From IMG/VR virus record IMGVR_UViG_3300032284_002783, positions 1-64,000 of that record: DNA of 64,000 nucleotides; one strand, written 5' to 3'. The position numbers were made by a program, and so were the translations under genes. How positions within the stretch are numbered: position 1 is the stretch's first letter; the number at the start of each line of letters is the position of its first letter. Below are positions 15,626 to 40,258 of the stretch, in pieces. A model generated the notes under the pieces. It searched no databases. It was not told where the DNA came from and was given only the letters and a program-made list of their open reading frames with translations. Origin of the DNA: a virus.

Positions 15626-16529
15626 GATTACATGTTTTACATTAGTACCTTGAGGATTATTATGAGTCTTGCGAACTCGTTTCCCTCAACATCCACTGTC
15701 CCCTCATATTGTGAGACAGTCTACTAACAATGTCGCCTTTTTTAAGGTCAGGCAGTAGACCTTTCATGCAGTGCTACTCTACAACTTTTGCACCGTTAGC
15801 CTTGCGAGCTATTCGAGAGCGCTAACCCTCTACGACACATCTGTTACAGACCAACTCCACCTTGCGAGTTTTGTTGGGCTTGGTTCTCTTACGAGCCAAG
15901 CATTAGACATCTTTCACACTACACAGGGCCAGGCTTTGCGTTTTTGTAATCGAAAGTTGGACTTGAACCAACATACGACTGCTTGGAATGCAGTTGCCTA
16001 AACCATTCGGCTATATCGTTTGAACCTACTGTGATGTGCTGGCCCTGTTGCTGCATACCTTGTTAGATACACAATACAACACACCACCTGTATTTCGTCT
16101 TGCAGACTACTTTACCGTTTACCTGGACACTGTCTAGCCTTACGAGCTAGCCAATCCCCTCAAAACTGCCAACCGCCCTTGGCTGCAAAGCCTCGAACTT
16201 GTTTGACTATCCATTATCTATCAGCATTCTGTTGGTTTGCGTGCAAAGGTGATACTTGCGGTATCTTACTCCTCACCGATTGGCTCTGGAGCACATCCTT
16301 TCGGACCTTTACCCAACTGTCCTGCTTACCACCCCTTTCGGATGGCTCCTTTCGGAGCAGACTGGACTTGCATAGTGGACCCTATTGCTAGGTGCTGGTA
16401 GGTAGGCCTTCCAGCTTTGGGTCAGTTGCCTGACTTATTCCATTAATGGCGCTATGCCGCCAATGCTTATTTTACATTTTATAGAACAAAAACTTTGCAC
16501 ATTCGCTTGCGCTTGTGTGCGCCGTCTAT
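15616..16529 (-). ncRNA. GOLLD-like giant ornate RNA (about 900 nt)
   Basis: No credible ORF; about a dozen GNRA-capped hairpins on the minus strand; 3' end CAGUGGAUG..GAGGGAAA..AAUAAUCCUC..UGUAAUCUCAG resembles the GOLLD 3' domain as recalled; own sigma70 promoter. Confidence 0.75.
15948..16020 (-). tRNA. Degenerate tRNA-Gly(UCC)-like domain embedded in the GOLLD-like RNA
   Basis: D arm GCCGAAUGGUUUAGGC, anticodon arm ACUGC-AUUCCAA-GCAGU, T arm GUUGG-UUCAAGU-CCAAC; acceptor stem has two mismatches and no CCA. Confidence 0.6.
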
Positions 16530-18535: not shown

Positions 18536-19408
18536 ATGTGTGTTATAGCAGTGAAATATCTACCAGAAATTGGTTGGATAGGTGTAAAAAATAGAGATCG
18601 CGGATATTATCCAGAAATCAATATACGTAAAAGTACCAAGCATGGCATTGAACGCTGCTATATCTGGGATGCAAATACCAAGTATACAGAAGGTGTAAAC
18701 GAGCACGGCGTTAGTATTATATCGGCTAGCATGGCCACTATTAGTGATGAAAAAGGTGCAGGAACCACTACACACGAAGGTACAAATAAAAATTATATGA
18801 GTCCAGATGGTAAAAAGATTCGCACCGCGCTTTTAGAAAAAACCTGTAAATCTGCATTGGAATGCTTGGTTGAAAAAGAACTTACAGGACATACGTTTGT
18901 TTTTAATGAGAACGAATGCTACATTCTTGAGAGTGGTTACAGAAACGGAACGTTTGTTTATAAGATACAGGAAATACAACCTAATCAAGTCTGCGTTAGA
19001 ACTAATCACGGAATACTGTTGCCATGGGCAGGATATCAACGTGTGCAGACAGATCCTTCGCATAGTCGTAAACGTGTTAGCAGCGAAGTACGTAAGATTA
19101 AAAGTGAACTAGGTATGATTCCTAGCAAAACTGTAAAAGAAGCACTTAACAGTATTATGGATCACAGTGAGCCTAATCCTCAACTTAATCCCTGCAGAAT
19201 AGATGACAGAGATGGTTATATGAAAACCACTGGACAAATAGCTATAGTTCCAAAACATAGAAAACTATATTATCGTCCAATTTGGAGTGCCTTAGAAGTT
19301 GATTTTAATAAAATCAATCACGGGCATAGTAAAACATTTTTTGAAGTAATTGATGTGCCAGCTGATACAGCTAAAGCCAGTGCTAAATTAAAAATTGCAA
19401 AAAGTTAG
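18536..19408 (+). CDS. N-terminal nucleophile (Cys) hydrolase, C45/NRDE-like
   Basis: MCVIAVK...KNRDR...EGVNEHG...RTNHG. Confidence 0.7.
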   Translation: MCVIAVKYLPEIGWIGVKNRDRGYYPEINIRKSTKHGIERCYIWDANTKYTEGVNEHGVSIISASMATISDEKGAGTTTHEGTNKNYMSPDGKKIRTALLEKTCKSALECLVEKELTGHTFVFNENECYILESGYRNGTFVYKIQEIQPNQVCVRTNHGILLPWAGYQRVQTDPSHSRKRVSSEVRKIKSELGMIPSKTVKEALNSIMDHSEPNPQLNPCRIDDRDGYMKTTGQIAIVPKHRKLYYRPIWSALEVDFNKINHGHSKTFFEVIDVPADTAKASAKLKIAKS

Positions 19409-19746
19409 ACGTGAAAACTTTGACCGCACCCGCAACGACCTTTCTCGTTGGGATTAGTGAAAAAGAAACCGTTTGAAAATTCTTCTTCTTTATAGTCCAT
19501 AATTGAGCCAATTAAAAAAAGTATACTTTTTCTGTCTATGAGAATCTTAATATCATCTATAGCAATTACTTCATCTTGTGCATCTATGCTATCGCTGTAT
19601 TCTAATGTATAACTTAGGCCGCTGCAGCCTTTAGTACGAATACCAATTCTGATGCCAGCTGTGTCTTTTGACCTAGCAGCAATCATTTCTTTTATTTTAC
19701 TTGCAGCTAACTCAGTTACCTGTAGTAGCTGAGGACGATTCTTCAT
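19405..19746 (-). CDS. iscA: Fe-S cluster assembly A-type carrier IscA
   Basis: KGCSGLSY...RCGCGQSF; start at MKNRPQ. Confidence 0.92.
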   Translation of the reverse strand: MKNRPQLLQVTELAASKIKEMIAARSKDTAGIRIGIRTKGCSGLSYTLEYSDSIDAQDEVIAIDDIKILIDRKSILFLIGSIMDYKEEEFSNGFFFTNPNEKGRCGCGQSFHV

Positions 19747-21154
19747 GGGCTGGTTCCATTTGCTTTTTGCGATAATCTTCAATAGCAGCTTTAATAGCAT
19801 CTTCAGCTAACACGCTGCAGTGTATTTTTACTGGTGGCAGGCTTAAATGCTGAGCGATATCTGTATTTCTAATACTAGCTGCTTCGTCTAGAGTTTTACC
19901 TTTAACCCATTCAGTTACTAGGCTTGACGCCGCAATCGCTGAACCACAGTTATGAGAACCAACCCTATTTGAGAAAAAAACATGAGCACCATCGTCTAAT
20001 TTTAAATCATATACTATTACAGTCTTACCGTCGCGTTCACATCCTCGTAATTGATTTAGGTGAGTAATTGGCGAGATGTTGACTATTTTGATTCCGTTAT
20101 GTATAAAATTTTGTACTTTTGGTAGTGCAGTTTCTATATCTTCTATTGCTAAAAATAATGAATCGTATCCAGCAGTTGCAAGTTGTTGGCGGCGTTGCTC
20201 TACATAATTAGATTCCTCAGACCTATCTTGCATAAATTTAGGCATACGTTTTGTGTAAACTTCTATGCATTTTTTCTTACCGGGAACGATAAAGTCTGGA
20301 CTAGCAGGACCATTTATGGTTTGAATCCAAATTTTGCCAGCACTCCACACTGCTGCTACATTGTTTTCTTCAAATAAATTAATATATGTTTGTTCGATGC
20401 TAGTAGGTAAAGACCAATCACGGCGTGACATACCTTCCTGCCATTTTTTAATGTACTCACTATCTTGCCATTTTTTTAGGCTCGCTTCACGTTGTTTCTT
20501 TTTCATTGTTACCGGATCTTTACATATGAATCCGGGTTGGTTTTGTGGTAATACAGAATGATCAAAATTTTTGTTCCATTCTTTCATTCTAACACTACTT
20601 TTTTCTTTAAAATTAGCACGATGTCTAATGTTAGTTAATATTCTTAATTCGTGTTCAGTTATTTCATATAGTTCTTGACCAACCTGTAGTTGTTGAGCTT
20701 CAACCGGTTGATTATTTGCATTCCAAAATATATGTTCTTTTGTGCAAATTAGAGAGAATGTGCCAGCATTGATATTTTTTCGGCTGGATTTACGTCTAAA
20801 AGTAACAACTAATAAATCATTAATGTCAACAGAATGCTTGATAATATCTCTTATTTTTTGATTAACAATTCTTTCGCCATTCCAAGCCAGTACTTCGTCT
20901 CCTATATTTAAATCTTTGATTTTTTTAACACAGGTTGGTGTATTAATTGGAGCATTGCTGGTCAAGCAACCAAATGTTTTGAACTTAGCATCTTCAATAA
21001 GTCCTTCTGGACTTACTTTGATTTGCAGCTTCATAACATCTCCGCAAGCCGGAGCTCCTACTAAACCGGTTCCAACATTAGAATCTAGTTTATCAAGTGA
21101 TCCTATATTTCTAGGATTTTCATAATGATCTATTAGCCTACTGCTGTATGTCAT
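19712..21154 (-). CDS. iscU: Fe-S scaffold IscU interrupted by an intein
   Basis: DHYENPRNIG, GAPACGDVM, KTFG|intein|CGSAIAASS, LPPVKIHCS; spliced product about 140 aa. Confidence 0.93.
   Translation of the reverse strand: MTYSSRLIDHYENPRNIGSLDKLDSNVGTGLVGAPACGDVMKLQIKVSPEGLIEDAKFKTFGCLTSNAPINTPTCVKKIKDLNIGDEVLAWNGERIVNQKIRDIIKHSVDINDLLVVTFRRKSSRKNINAGTFSLICTKEHIFWNANNQPVEAQQLQVGQELYEITEHELRILTNIRHRANFKEKSSVRMKEWNKNFDHSVLPQNQPGFICKDPVTMKKKQREASLKKWQDSEYIKKWQEGMSRRDWSLPTSIEQTYINLFEENNVAAVWSAGKIWIQTINGPASPDFIVPGKKKCIEVYTKRMPKFMQDRSEESNYVEQRRQQLATAGYDSLFLAIEDIETALPKVQNFIHNGIKIVNISPITHLNQLRGCERDGKTVIVYDLKLDDGAHVFFSNRVGSHNCGSAIAASSLVTEWVKGKTLDEAASIRNTDIAQHLSLPPVKIHCSVLAEDAIKAAIEDYRKKQMEPAHEESSSATTGN
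19949..20968 (-). mobile_element. Intein (340 aa) with internal Vsr/DUF559-like endonuclease
   Basis: Block A CLTSNAPI, block B CTKEHIF, block F VYDL, block G SHN followed by Cys+1; internal SPDF...CIEV nuclease motif. Confidence 0.9.
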
Positions 21155-21162
21155 AAAAATAT

Positions 21163-21483
21163 TTATGCTTCTTCAATTTCACAGCGAAGTGGGAAGTTGT
21201 TAGTCCTAGCACTTAAAATAGTTTCATCACGCTTTTGTGTTGCAACTTCATGGCTGTATGTGCCTGCGATACCACGACCAGTTTCATGGATGCGTAGTGT
21301 TAGGCTGCTAGCATCATCAAAGCTTTTATGGAAAATATTCATCAACACAAGAATAACGAATTCAACCGTGGTGCTGTCATCATTGTACAGCACCACGTTG
21401 AACATACCAGGCGCACGCATGGTTACTTTTGTAGTAGTGTCAGTTTGTTCTACGGTATCAATAGCAGCCACGCATGCCTCCAA
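21163..21483 (-). CDS. clpS: N-end rule adaptor ClpS
   Basis: VVLYNDDSTTVEFVI..L...IHETGRGIAGTY..EVA.QK...FPL. Confidence 0.92.
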   Translation of the reverse strand: MEACVAAIDTVEQTDTTTKVTMRAPGMFNVVLYNDDSTTVEFVILVLMNIFHKSFDDASSLTLRIHETGRGIAGTYSHEVATQKRDETILSARTNNFPLRCEIEEA

Positions 21484-21485
21484 TA

Positions 21486-21962
21486 TTAGTCTTTTTTACC
21501 TTCAATCAAATTGCCGGTTGGATTAGTTCCAATGGCAATCTTTCGAGGCTTCATTGCTTCGGGTAGCTCATATGCAAAGTCAATAGTGAGCACACCATCT
21601 GACAGGTTACTAGTTGTTACCTGAATGTATGCATTCAAGTAAAAAGTACGACGGAAGCTACGTCCAGCAATACCCTTGTAAAGATATTTCTTATTATCTT
21701 CCTTGGCGATTTTGCCTTCAATAGTTAGTACGCCGTCCTGCAGTGTGATATTGATATCATCTGCAGTAAATCCTGCCACTGCCATACTTAGACGATAGTT
21801 ATTTTCGTCAATCTGCTCTAGATCGTATGGTGGATAGCTTGTACCAGCTGAATTTCTCACCTGATCAAGCATACGGAAAGTAGGTTCAAAACCTACGGCC
21901 ACACGATTGAGATCACGAAAAATATCGTCAAAGTAATCAGTCATTGTAGTAAGTCCTCGCAT
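21486..21962 (-). CDS. ibpA: Small heat shock protein (IbpA/Hsp20)
   Basis: SYPPYDL, MAVAGF, YLYKGIAGRSF, PEAMKPRKI. Confidence 0.93.
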   Translation of the reverse strand: MRGLTTMTDYFDDIFRDLNRVAVGFEPTFRMLDQVRNSAGTSYPPYDLEQIDENNYRLSMAVAGFTADDINITLQDGVLTIEGKIAKEDNKKYLYKGIAGRSFRRTFYLNAYIQVTTSNLSDGVLTIDFAYELPEAMKPRKIAIGTNPTGNLIEGKKD

Positions 21963-22037
21963 GTTTACCTCCTATATTAAGCGAAGTATATTAGTGAAAC
22001 CCTTTTAGGCATCTCACTGGCTAGATTTTATCTAGCA
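21963..22037 (-). promoter_or_regulatory. ROSE-like RNA thermometer in the sHSP 5' UTR
   Basis: Two upstream hairpins, then UACUUCGCU-UAAUAU-AGGAGGUA pairing the U(U/C)GCU motif with the SD. Confidence 0.7.
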
Positions 22038-22043
22038 CTGTAT

Positions 22044-22072
22044 ATATAAGCATAACTAGGTACAGTGTCAAG
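22044..22072 (-). promoter_or_regulatory. RpoH-like heat-shock promoter
   Basis: CTTG-N18-CTTATAT, close to the alphaproteobacterial RpoH consensus. Confidence 0.5.
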
Positions 22073-22077
22073 AGCTG

Positions 22078-22392
22078 TTAGTCGTTTTTTGGCAAATCAA
22101 TAGGTGATTTGTTAATTACCTTTTGTGTCTTAGGCTTTTTCTTACGAGGGGTTTCAATTTCCATAATCTGAGCGTACTTTTTCTTCCAACGAAGTTTAGC
22201 TTCACTCATTCTTTGACGCTTTAGAACACTCTGTGGTGTAAAGTTTTTACGCTTACGCAGTTCTTTATTCACACCTTCGCTATTCATTCTGCGCTTTAGC
22301 TGCGCCATAGCACCTTCTAAATTACCGTTCTTTACAATTACAGTCATACCCTTTTTACGTACACCAGGTTCGTCGTTCATATCATTCTCCAT
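22078..22392 (-). CDS. rpsU: Ribosomal protein bS21
   Basis: VIVKNGNLEGAMAQLKRRMNSEGVNKELRKRKNFTPQS..KR. Confidence 0.82.
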   Translation of the reverse strand: MENDMNDEPGVRKKGMTVIVKNGNLEGAMAQLKRRMNSEGVNKELRKRKNFTPQSVLKRQRMSEAKLRWKKKYAQIMEIETPRKKKPKTQKVINKSPIDLPKND

Positions 22393-22428
22393 AGGTTGTA
22401 TCCTTTTACAATTTATTTTGAAAGAAAT

Positions 22429-23007
22429 CTATTTATTTTTTGGCATTGCGGAAACGATTGCCAATATAGATTTTCCATCTAGTGTAGGAGCTTTTTCAAC
22501 TCTACATTCTCCAAGACCTGCTAAAAAGTTTTCCATTATAGCGAAGCCTTTATCTGTGAAACTTAGCTCACGACCTTTAAACTTGATCACAATTCGTACC
22601 TTAACTTCATCAGCTAAAAATTCTTTAGCATGATTAATTTTAATCTCAAGATCGTGTGTGTCTGTTACAGGACGAAGTTGTATTTCTTTTACTACAGTGG
22701 CATTTTCGCGTGCCTTCTTTTCCTGTTCTTTTCTAGCACGTTTTAAGCTATACACATGCTTGCCAATATCGACTATCTTAACCACAGGAGGTTTAGCCTC
22801 AGCTGTAATTTCAACCAGATCTAACCCCTGATCTCTAGCCATTTTAAGTGCTGCCTTGGCATTTACAACGCCTAGGCTGTTACCTTCTGCATCTAGCAAT
22901 CTTACTTCAGGATATCTAATTTGCTCATTGCAAACCAGCCCGGCACGTACAGGATCTTCATATCTGCGTGCAGATTTAAAATTTGGATTTATATACCTAT
23001 TGTTCAA
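22429..23007 (-). CDS. infC: Translation initiation factor IF3
   Basis: NEQIRYPEVRL, GLDLVEI..AKPPVVKI, VKEIQLRP..HDL, FKGRE. Confidence 0.93.
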   Translation of the reverse strand: MNNRYINPNFKSARRYEDPVRAGLVCNEQIRYPEVRLLDAEGNSLGVVNAKAALKMARDQGLDLVEITAEAKPPVVKIVDIGKHVYSLKRARKEQEKKARENATVVKEIQLRPVTDTHDLEIKINHAKEFLADEVKVRIVIKFKGRELSFTDKGFAIMENFLAGLGECRVEKAPTLDGKSILAIVSAMPKNK

Positions 23008-24245
23008 GATGCTTCTCCAGTAGCTTGGCTAAAAACTTTTAATGGTTTATTCATATTTTCCACAGTCTCCTTTGTAATACATACTTTCCTTACTCCTTCT
23101 TTGTAAAGGCTAGGTAGCTCAAATTGAATATCAACAAGTATATTCTCAATGATACTTCTTAGGCCTCTTGCACCAGTCTTTCTTGCCATTGCCTGTGCAG
23201 CAATTGCTTGCAGACTTTCTTTTGTAAACTCTAATTCAATTTTGTCAAGTGAAAAGAGTTTTTGAAATTGTTTAACTAATGCATTTTTTGGCTTTGACAA
23301 AATTTTAATTAATGCGTCTTCATTCAAATCCTCAAATGCAACAATAATTGGCAAACGTCCTATCATTTCAGGAATGATTCCAAACTTTACCAAATCTTCT
23401 CCTTTGACTTGTTTTATTAAGTCATAGTTGGATGTAGTTGTGTCTGGCATTTTGATGCTGGCATTGAAACCAATCGAAGTATCGTTTTCTCCAACCCTGC
23501 GTTCAATTATTTTATCCAGTCCTTCAAACGCACCGCCAACAATAAACAGGATTTGCTTAGTATTAATTGTTACAAACTCAGCGTTGGGATTTTTGCGACC
23601 GCCGTTTGGTTGTACTTTTACATCACATCCTTCGATCATCTTAAGCAGAGCTTGCTGCACACCTTCGCCGCTTACATCGCGTGTGATTGATGTGTTTTCG
23701 CTCTTTCGACCTTTTTTGTCAATTTCGTCAATATAAACAATGCCGCGTTCAGTCTTGGCAATATCTTGCTCAGCAGCTTGATAAAGTTTAGCGATGCAGT
23801 CTTCTACGTCCAACCCCACATAACCACTTTCAGTTAAACTAGTAGCGTCTACAATTGCCAATGGCAGATCCAACATTCGAGCAACAGTTTGAATAGTATA
23901 AGTTTTACCTGTACCACTGCCACCGATAAAGATCATATTACTTTTATCAATTTCAACTCCGTCAATAACAGGATTATTGATTCGTTTGAAATGATTGTAG
24001 ATAGCTACTGCTAGAGTTTTCTTAGCATAATCTTGCCCAACTACATACTCATCTAACTTATTTTTAATAACCTGTGGATGAGCTTCGGTTTCTTTAACAA
24101 TCTTTGGCTTTTCTTGTTTGATTATTTCGTACGATAGAACGATACATTCGTCGCAAATGTATACGTCATTGCCTGCCACAAGTTTGCTTACTTGAGTTTG
24201 ATTTTTTTCGCAGAAACTGCAAGAATGAATAATTTTATTAGTCAT
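23004..24245 (-). CDS. clpX: ATP-dependent Clp protease ATPase ClpX
   Basis: CSFC/ICDEC zinc finger, [32 protein letters not shown] loop, TGARGLR. Confidence 0.96.
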
Positions 24246-39709: not shown

Positions 39710-39877
39710 ATGGGCAAACCAAATTTTATAAAAGGTAAGACCGCATGGAACAAAGGAAAAAATAATCCTAATGCTGCCGAAAACGGTAAAAAAGGAGCAT
39801 TATTACAATCTATCAAGGTCATTGGTCGAAAACGAAAATATAATGATGACGGTACATGGTCATGGTATTACCCATAA
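39710..39877 (+). pseudogene. Remnant of homing endonuclease DNA-binding tail
   Basis: 55 aa KGKTAWNKGK..GRKRKY.DDGTWSW; no nuclease domain upstream. Confidence 0.5.
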
Positions 39878-39880
39878 TAA

Positions 39881-39908
39881 AATAAGGGAGCATTAATGCT
39901 CCCTTATT
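39881..39908. terminator. Intrinsic terminator after tmRNA
   Basis: AATAAGGGAGCA-TTAA-TGCTCCCTTATT. Confidence 0.8.
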
Positions 39909-40220
39909 TGATCTTTTCTGTTTCTAAGAAGACCGATCTCAATCTTAGGCTACTGCCTGAAGAAACGGAGCATTATCATTTGCTGCGTTTATTGTTTTTG
40001 ATCTATAAAGCGATCATCCTGCTATCTACTTCAATACCTTCAGCGCCAATCGATCCCAGTTATCCCCCATCAAAAGCACAGCCCGCTTTGCCTTTTCAGC
40101 TTATCCAAAAAACGACCTAGCATGTTTGCAACCATGTTATCCAGGCGTCTGTGCTTGTGGTGGAGGATTGGGGAGTTGAACCCCAGTCTTGATCACCTAT
40201 ATATTGCTATCAACAACAGC
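39909..40220 (-). ncRNA. ssrA: Two-piece (circularly permuted) tmRNA
   Basis: Acceptor piece with T arm and AUCCUCC-A-CCA (ends 40158); intervening segment; coding piece starts GGGGGAU (40068) giving G3:U70; tag (A)ANDNAPFLQAVA* at 39945-39986. Confidence 0.92.
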
Positions 40221-40225
40221 TAGTA

Positions 40226-40233
40226 TATTTATA
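40226..40233 (-). promoter_or_regulatory. T4-type late promoter for tmRNA
   Basis: Exact TATAAATA. Confidence 0.75.
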
Positions 40234-40258
40234 ACACAGATTTTTTAAAAATCAAGAC

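Follow-up and report, generated by a model that had tools for sequence, protein, structure and literature searches.

The iscU locus and its phage

The window analysed here, a stretch of 64,000 nucleotides at the start of an IMG/VR virus contig (IMGVR_UViG_3300032284_002783; 76.6 kb, estimated to be 18% complete), contains on its minus strand a gene for the Fe-S scaffold protein IscU that carries an in-frame insert (Table 1). The whole gene is a single open reading frame without interruption, encoding 480 amino acids, and is followed directly by iscA, which encodes an A-type carrier. In Pfam, the precursor matches NifU_N (E 3.6e-48) in two separate stretches with a weak Hint match between them. 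A phmmer search against PDB sequences aligned precursor residues 1-63 with residues 1-63 of Escherichia coli IscU (2l4x) and precursor residues 402-465 with IscU residues 62-125, and these flanks place the insert exactly between Gly62 and Cys63. The insert therefore corresponds to precursor residues 63-402; it begins with CLTSN and ends with VGSHN, and the C-extein resumes with CGSAIA from residue 403.

The two exteins together carry the full residue set of type-I scaffolds (Cys37, Asp39, Cys63, His105, Cys106 and LPPVK), by which the host protein is identified as an IscU type-I Fe-S scaffold. Compared with E. coli IscU and other scaffolds of this type, the phage exteins align end to end with residues 1-62 and 63-125, whereas the protein differs in being encoded by a phage, in bearing an intein and in having a longer C-terminal tail, whose coding region overlaps iscA. 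The first residue after the insert is Cys63, which belongs to the three cysteines that ligate the Fe-S cluster. A preliminary description of this DNA, made from the sequence alone, had proposed a 340-residue intein starting at residue 63 and had named the cluster ligand of KTFG/CGSAIA as the +1 nucleophile. Its coordinates, length and residue numbers proved correct when compared with the reading frame, the IscU alignment, the invariant splicing residues and the HINT fold, and the alignment to 2l4x bears out the assignment of the nucleophile.

Table 1. Positions of the genes, protein segments and neighbouring features (window coordinates, except where a related locus is named)
Feature	Position	Strand	Remarks
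iscU precursor gene (N-extein, intein, C-extein)	19712..21154	-	480 codons and stop
N-extein, IscU residues 1-62	20969..21154	-	ligand Cys37 and Asp39, KTFG at end; aligns to 2l4x 1-62
Intein, 340 aa	19949..20968	-	Cys1 codon 20966-20968; Asn340 codon 19949-19951
HINT N-lobe, intein residues 1-104	20657..20968	-	block A Cys1, block B T76-K-E-H79; from invariant columns and Foldseek
Endonuclease insert, helical N-terminal part, intein residues 105-200	20369..20656	-	presumed DNA-binding region
Vsr/DUF559-like nuclease core, intein residues 185-291	20096..20416	-	predicted from Foldseek, VIA, profile and residue tallies
HINT C-lobe, intein residues 301-340	19949..20068	-	blocks F and G: VYDLKL..GAHVFF, VGSHN
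C-extein, 78 aa	19715..19948	-	Cys+1 = IscU Cys63 (codon 19946-19948), LPPVK, His105-Cys106, C-terminal tail
iscA (A-type carrier)	19405..19746	-	directly downstream of iscU; likely start 19746, giving a 35-nt overlap with the iscU 3' end
clpX, infC (IF3), rpsU (bS21), hsp20, clpS	21163-24245	-	contiguous, directly upstream of iscU-iscA
Two overlapping small ORFs, 83 and 147 aa	17824-18488	-	common C-terminal ...F.LTWL end
tRNA-Gly(UCC)	15946-16021	-
Permuted two-piece tmRNA	39854-40251	-	tag AANDNAPFLQAVA
Proteins with the same intein and Vsr-like nuclease family			P0141, P0153, P0166, P0143, P0137, P0250
iscU frame break, examples	L016:3520-3560, L017:6574-6602, L036:10090-10125, loci L122-L190		after Cys37-Gly38
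HNH-type endonuclease gene, 199 aa	L003:10001-10766		same in L004-L007; NUMOD-like repeats
C-extein breaks	L025:5406-5579, L035:4078-4251

The preliminary description had taken the genome for that of a phage, which agrees with the origin of the record as well as with its gene content. Genes for a T4-type sheath, gp23 fragments, ribonucleotide reductase and a split topoisomerase II are present in the window, together with genes for ClpX, ClpS, Hsp20, bS21 and IF3, a permuted tmRNA and tRNA-Gly. The topoisomerase is closest to that of Sinorhizobium phage Phosso (54%), followed by that of Agrobacterium phage Atu_ph07 (49%), both of which are jumbo phages, and on these sequence comparisons the carrier of the intein is a jumbo phage related to Atu_ph07 and Phosso. 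A protein identical to the 480-residue precursor is also encoded on a 303-kb contig. The permuted tmRNA and the fact that the nearest isolates are jumbo phages of Agrobacterium and Sinorhizobium suggest an alphaproteobacterial host. Parts of the clpX-to-clpS cluster recur beside iscU in related contigs. The longer of the two small overlapping reading frames begins with a segment (residues 13-57) that Pfam assigns to Gp23 (E 8.5e-10) and that matches the N-terminus of gp23, the major capsid protein of T4. No cysteine desulfurase (PF00266) was found in the 76.6-kb record, itself only about 18% complete.

The intein and its splicing residues

Two alignment sets were used to examine the insert, one of 22 full-length relatives from a protein collection and the other of the window intein with 25 further inteins from IMG/VR viral contigs. 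The insert occupies the identical codon in all 22 aligned full-length relatives and in all 26 inteins, and C1, T76, H79, H339, N340 and C+1 are invariant in both sets; an insert at the same codon with invariant splicing residues, as seen in these alignments, is far beyond chance. Two further cysteines of the intein, C75 and C234, are also invariant. The AlphaFold model of the whole intein has a pLDDT of 73, and its top Foldseek matches are mini-inteins, namely those of Mycobacterium smegmatis and M. chimaera DnaB, gp41-1 and RecA (E about 1e-5, probability 1.0). By its defining sequence features and predicted fold, the insert is a class-1 intein, and the canonical residues suggest that the precursor would undergo protein splicing. 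When a profile of the whole intein was searched against PDB sequences, a designed TIM barrel and sugar-binding proteins were returned and were rejected as chance matches on the last helix-strand region.

A Vsr-like nuclease domain within the intein

Intein residues 105-300 form an insertion within the HINT fold and have no match in Pfam or PHROGs. LAGLIDADG, HNH and GIY-YIG nucleases were considered and rejected, as none of them was matched in the intein by Pfam or PHROGs and the fold search led to Vsr-like proteins. The nuclease region was analysed by means of an alignment in which the window intein was joined by the corresponding segments of 13 inteins from IMG/VR and of 32 free-standing relatives, collected by an exhaustive HMMER search. 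Intein residues 105-200 align with the NUMOD3-bearing parts of the free-standing relatives, and this helical arm is presumed to bind DNA; Pfam NUMOD3 gives no score within the intein itself.

In Foldseek, the model of the nuclease part (pLDDT 87) matched the homing endonuclease I-Bth0305I best, namely its catalytic domain (3R3P, probability 1.0). In VIA-align, 3R3P gave a Z-score of 9.9 with an rmsd of 3.0 over 94 of 98 residues, followed by the DUF559-type protein NGO0050 (3hrl, Z 9.0) and Vsr (1cw0, Z 8.6). The profile of the nuclease alignment also finds 3R3P from sequence alone (E 8.9e-6). One free-standing relative, P0199, matches Pfam DUF559 at 32.2 bits (cut-off 20.6; E 1e-7) and Vsr weakly (E 0.054), and has five NUMOD3 motifs. 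The intein itself matches neither Pfam family, so that its membership of the Pfam DUF559/Vsr clan is one of transitive homology only, through P0199. Taken from sequence and model comparisons, the nuclease belongs to the Vsr/DUF559/I-Bth0305I lineage, and the initial suggestion of a Vsr/DUF559-like rather than a LAGLIDADG endonuclease is thus upheld by Foldseek, VIA, the profile search and the DUF559 match of P0199.

The residues of the nuclease core include E192, P224-D225-F226, K231-K233 and I235-E236-V237-Y-T-K240. In the IscU-intein alignment, Glu236, Asp225, Glu192 and Lys240 are invariant, and E192, D225 and E236 are retained in 116-122 of 125 relatives (E236 in 120 and D225 in 122). The position of the catalytic histidine (H213 of I-Bth0305I, H69 of Vsr) is taken by an invariant proline, Pro243, as is evident when IEVNGVYW(H) of 3r3p is aligned with IEVYTKRMP of the intein. 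A histidine is found at this position in only 13 of the 125 relatives. D248 is conserved in about 90% of IscU inteins, and the loop that holds the second aspartate (D222 of I-Bth0305I) aligns poorly across the family. From these residue patterns, the domain represents a His-less branch of Vsr-like homing nucleases. Since H213 of I-Bth0305I is thought to be the general base, its replacement by Pro243 means that the chemistry of the intein nuclease must differ or that the enzyme may be weak; Lys240 or Lys233 might substitute for the histidine in water activation.

Distribution, selection and evolutionary history

More than 120 protein clusters (about 465 aa, 65-80% identity) and 41 IMG/VR loci have the intein at this codon, and contigs of three other studies hold it at approximately 92-96% nucleotide identity. 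More distant intein relatives occupy the same codon of divergent iscU alleles, with intein identities of 43% (P0122) and 33% (P0128). In addition, the same family of intein and nuclease occurs in NrdD, family B DNA polymerase (PolB), a DegT-type aminotransferase, a transglutaminase-like protein and a B12/radical SAM enzyme, and the nuclease family is also found as free-standing genes. A scan with the C-extein detected at least 594 viral iscU stretches; all of the 80 loci returned were without the intein, with iscU contiguous at the insertion point, and iscA adjoins iscU in most of them. The pairing of iscU and iscA is kept in viral loci both with and without the intein. Roughly one viral iscU in fifteen is a carrier (41 versus at least 594), and since most viral iscU genes lack the intein, the function of IscU in these phages is independent of it. 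Only eight GenBank phage records contain IscU, none of them with an intein.

The dN/dS ratio was approximately 0.07 for the HINT parts and 0.07-0.10 for the nuclease parts, as derived from the 13 of 171 pairs with usable dS, and these values are rough because synonymous sites are near saturation. By this measure, both exteins and intein are under purifying selection, and a decaying passenger would not show such ratios. These data also bear on the notion that the locus is a disrupted iscU pseudogene or an artefact of assembly. A few related contigs with a stop or frameshift in the C-extein (L025 and L035) are all that was found in its favour, whereas the 480 codons of the window gene are open and the same architecture recurs in more than 120 independent protein clusters of several sources and in the contigs of three other studies. 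The clusters, the invariant alignment, the selection and the contigs of other studies effectively refute this reading, to which we assign a practically negligible probability.

The evolutionary history of the element was examined with a tree of 92 extein alleles based on 121 columns, most forks of which are not resolved. It implies 12 apparent changes of intein state, none of them forced by supported branches, and a single origin of the intein-bearing alleles was not rejected by the AU test (p 0.34); repeated gains are not demonstrable with a tree this short. Nucleotide identities of inteins and exteins are weakly correlated (rho 0.32, with saturated sites and one misaligned pair set, L031), and the window intein appears somewhat nearer to those of L001, L003 and L011 than the window exteins are to theirs. 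An intein-less copy of the same phage was not found. The contig joints in run X1 that skip the intein belong to intein-less iscU genes of other organisms (about 88% likeness, short sides) and are no evidence of a polymorphism in this phage.

Several other peculiarities were observed at related loci. A break in the reading frame immediately behind Cys37-Gly38 is seen in 72 related viral iscU genes, some with the intein and some without; a stop codon and 1-4 further bases separate Gly38 from another Gly codon, after which Asp39 follows (e.g. GGA TGA CT GGA and GGT TAG ATA GGC). The gap measures 4-7 nt and comes in 13 variants, and a Gly-to-Gly ribosomal hop fits this sequence pattern better than any single frameshift; the window iscU has no such insert after Cys37-Gly38. 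Directly upstream of the intein-bearing iscU of L003 lies the HNH-type endonuclease gene of Table 1, which is preceded by a duplicated 5' fragment of iscU (residues 1-29) and is a second mobile element at iscU. In one of the two loci with a broken C-extein, an in-frame TGA stands in place of the conserved Trp codon of VTEW, while the other has a frameshift near LPPVK; these may be errors, decay or recoding.

A probable selfish homing intein and its alternatives

Considering its splicing residues, nuclease and distribution, the element in this jumbo-phage iscU is most likely a selfish, mobile class-1 homing intein. According to this model, iscU would be translated as a 480-residue precursor, in which, as the canonical residues suggest, Cys1 of the intein would form a thioester with Gly62. 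Cys+1, the cluster ligand Cys63, would then take over the N-extein, Asn340 would cyclise, and an S-to-N shift would yield a normal IscU of 140 residues and a free intein of 340 residues. It is a reasonable inference that the putative precursor is inactive until spliced, and the spliced IscU would work with the adjacent phage IscA. For the in-frame nuclease, sequence and models predict as the most likely target the iscU alleles of co-infecting phages that lack the intein, with cleavage at or near the Gly62 and Cys63 codons. Repair from the intein-bearing copy would then spread the element, which may give its carrier an edge in mixed infections. The insertion site would have been chosen as an invariant stretch of DNA beside a required cysteine and not through any need of the phage for a switch. 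Homing elements typically sit at conserved active-site nucleophiles.

Another explanation is that the intein still splices while its nuclease is dead, having lost the catalytic histidine, and that the element is a fixed relic inherited vertically in one phage lineage without homing. The invariant Pro243 at the position of His213 of I-Bth0305I would fit such a history, as would the monophyly of intein-bearing alleles, which was not rejected. However, a dead nuclease should decay, yet inteins that are 60-80% identical share an invariant core, GPASPDFIVPGKKKCIEVYTK, and dN/dS is about 0.07. Moreover, the 125 relatives of which only 13 keep the histidine span free-standing genes and inteins of five other host proteins, so that the His-less nuclease is the common, spreading form, and the same family occupies the same site in very different iscU alleles. 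We therefore regard a fixed relic as unlikely.

The preliminary description had further suggested that Cys1/Cys+1 chemistry could make the intein a redox or metal switch. In this case the intein would be kept as a sensor of redox, metal or Fe-S status, with a Cys1-Cys+1 disulfide or a bound metal holding IscU as an inactive precursor until the infected cell offers suitable conditions, a scheme that has been proposed for the SufB intein of M. tuberculosis. Both Cys1 and Cys+1 are invariant and the latter is a cluster ligand, C75 and C234 are invariant as well, purifying selection is strong over the whole intein, and the literature contains discussions of conditional splicing for Cys-type inteins, among them that of SufB in the Fe-S pathway. 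Nevertheless, these features are common to many ordinary class-1 inteins, Cys1/Cys+1 chemistry among them. With carriers numbering 41 and viral iscU stretches at least 594, the intein is dispensable for phage function; its conserved nuclease domain fits the need of a mobile element and not of a sensor, and neither an extra domain nor an unusual residue was seen near the splice junctions. No evidence supporting the switch was thus obtained, given that the cysteines are ordinary, that the site is typical of homing elements and that most viral iscU genes are without the intein, and we consider it improbable.

In preferring a selfish homing intein, we give a rather low probability to the broader proposal that it is more than a passenger, with splicing controlled by the redox or Fe-S status of the infected cell so that active IscU is released only when needed, and/or with a nuclease that cuts iscU genes without the intein, in rival phages or in the host, to the advantage of the carrier. 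If this were true, the His-less nuclease of Vsr type would, in addition, be a catalytic variant of a new kind.

Relation to known systems and significance

The nearest known system is I-Bth0305I and the EDxHD family of 'fractured genes'. The IscU-intein nuclease shares with this family the nuclease fold and detectable sequence homology, two conserved acidic residues (Glu in I-E-V, Asp in P-D-F) and the association with phage genes and inteins; a further common trait, present in its relatives, is a helical arm of the NUMOD type ahead of the core. The split intein gp41-1, which comes from the same metagenomic set as the 'fractured genes', is among the nearest solved HINT domains of the IscU intein. 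In contrast to the family, the nuclease in IscU is fused in frame inside a contiguous intein and is not a separate gene between the halves of a split intein, part of a group I intron or encoded antisense, and it has Pro243 instead of H213, with Lys240 invariant. Dassa et al. (2009, PMC2677866) and Taylor et al. (2011, PMC3239194) described Vsr-like nucleases between the halves of split inteins, in group I introns and as free-standing genes. A preprint (10.1101/2025.01.02.630785) adds nucleases encoded antisense to full inteins and states that no other intein contexts were known. Since PMC2677866 and 10.1101/2025.01.02.630785 name only other intein contexts, a Vsr-like domain fused in frame within a contiguous intein seems to be undescribed.

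With regard to the host protein, the lack of an IscU precedent in the preliminary description is consistent with our literature search, in which no paper linking inteins with IscU or NifU was found. The SufB (Pps1) intein of M. tuberculosis is similar in residing in a core component of Fe-S assembly and in its Cys1/Cys+1 chemistry, and it is the usual example of stress-sensitive splicing in an Fe-S pathway. It differs in belonging to the SUF and not the ISC pathway, in having another host protein and in being bacterial rather than phage-borne. The endonuclease of the SufB intein is of the LAGLIDADG type, and no relationship between the SufB and IscU inteins was found beyond the HINT fold. Elements of this kind are well known; what seems to be new among them is IscU as the host protein and the in-frame arrangement with a Vsr-like nuclease.

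With the intein described here, IscU, the central scaffold of the ISC pathway, joins the short list of intein-bearing proteins outside replication. The carriers are phages, in which Fe-S genes count as auxiliary metabolic genes. A natural and abundant Vsr-type nuclease fused in frame within a contiguous intein represents the final stage that the 'fractured genes' model foresees (Dassa et al.; PMC2677866), and the example comes with a large alignment in which the expected catalytic histidine is absent. The family may also yield compact splicing domains and site-specific nucleases that are new, and it offers a test case for deciding between a sensory and a purely parasitic nature of Cys-type inteins at cofactor ligands.
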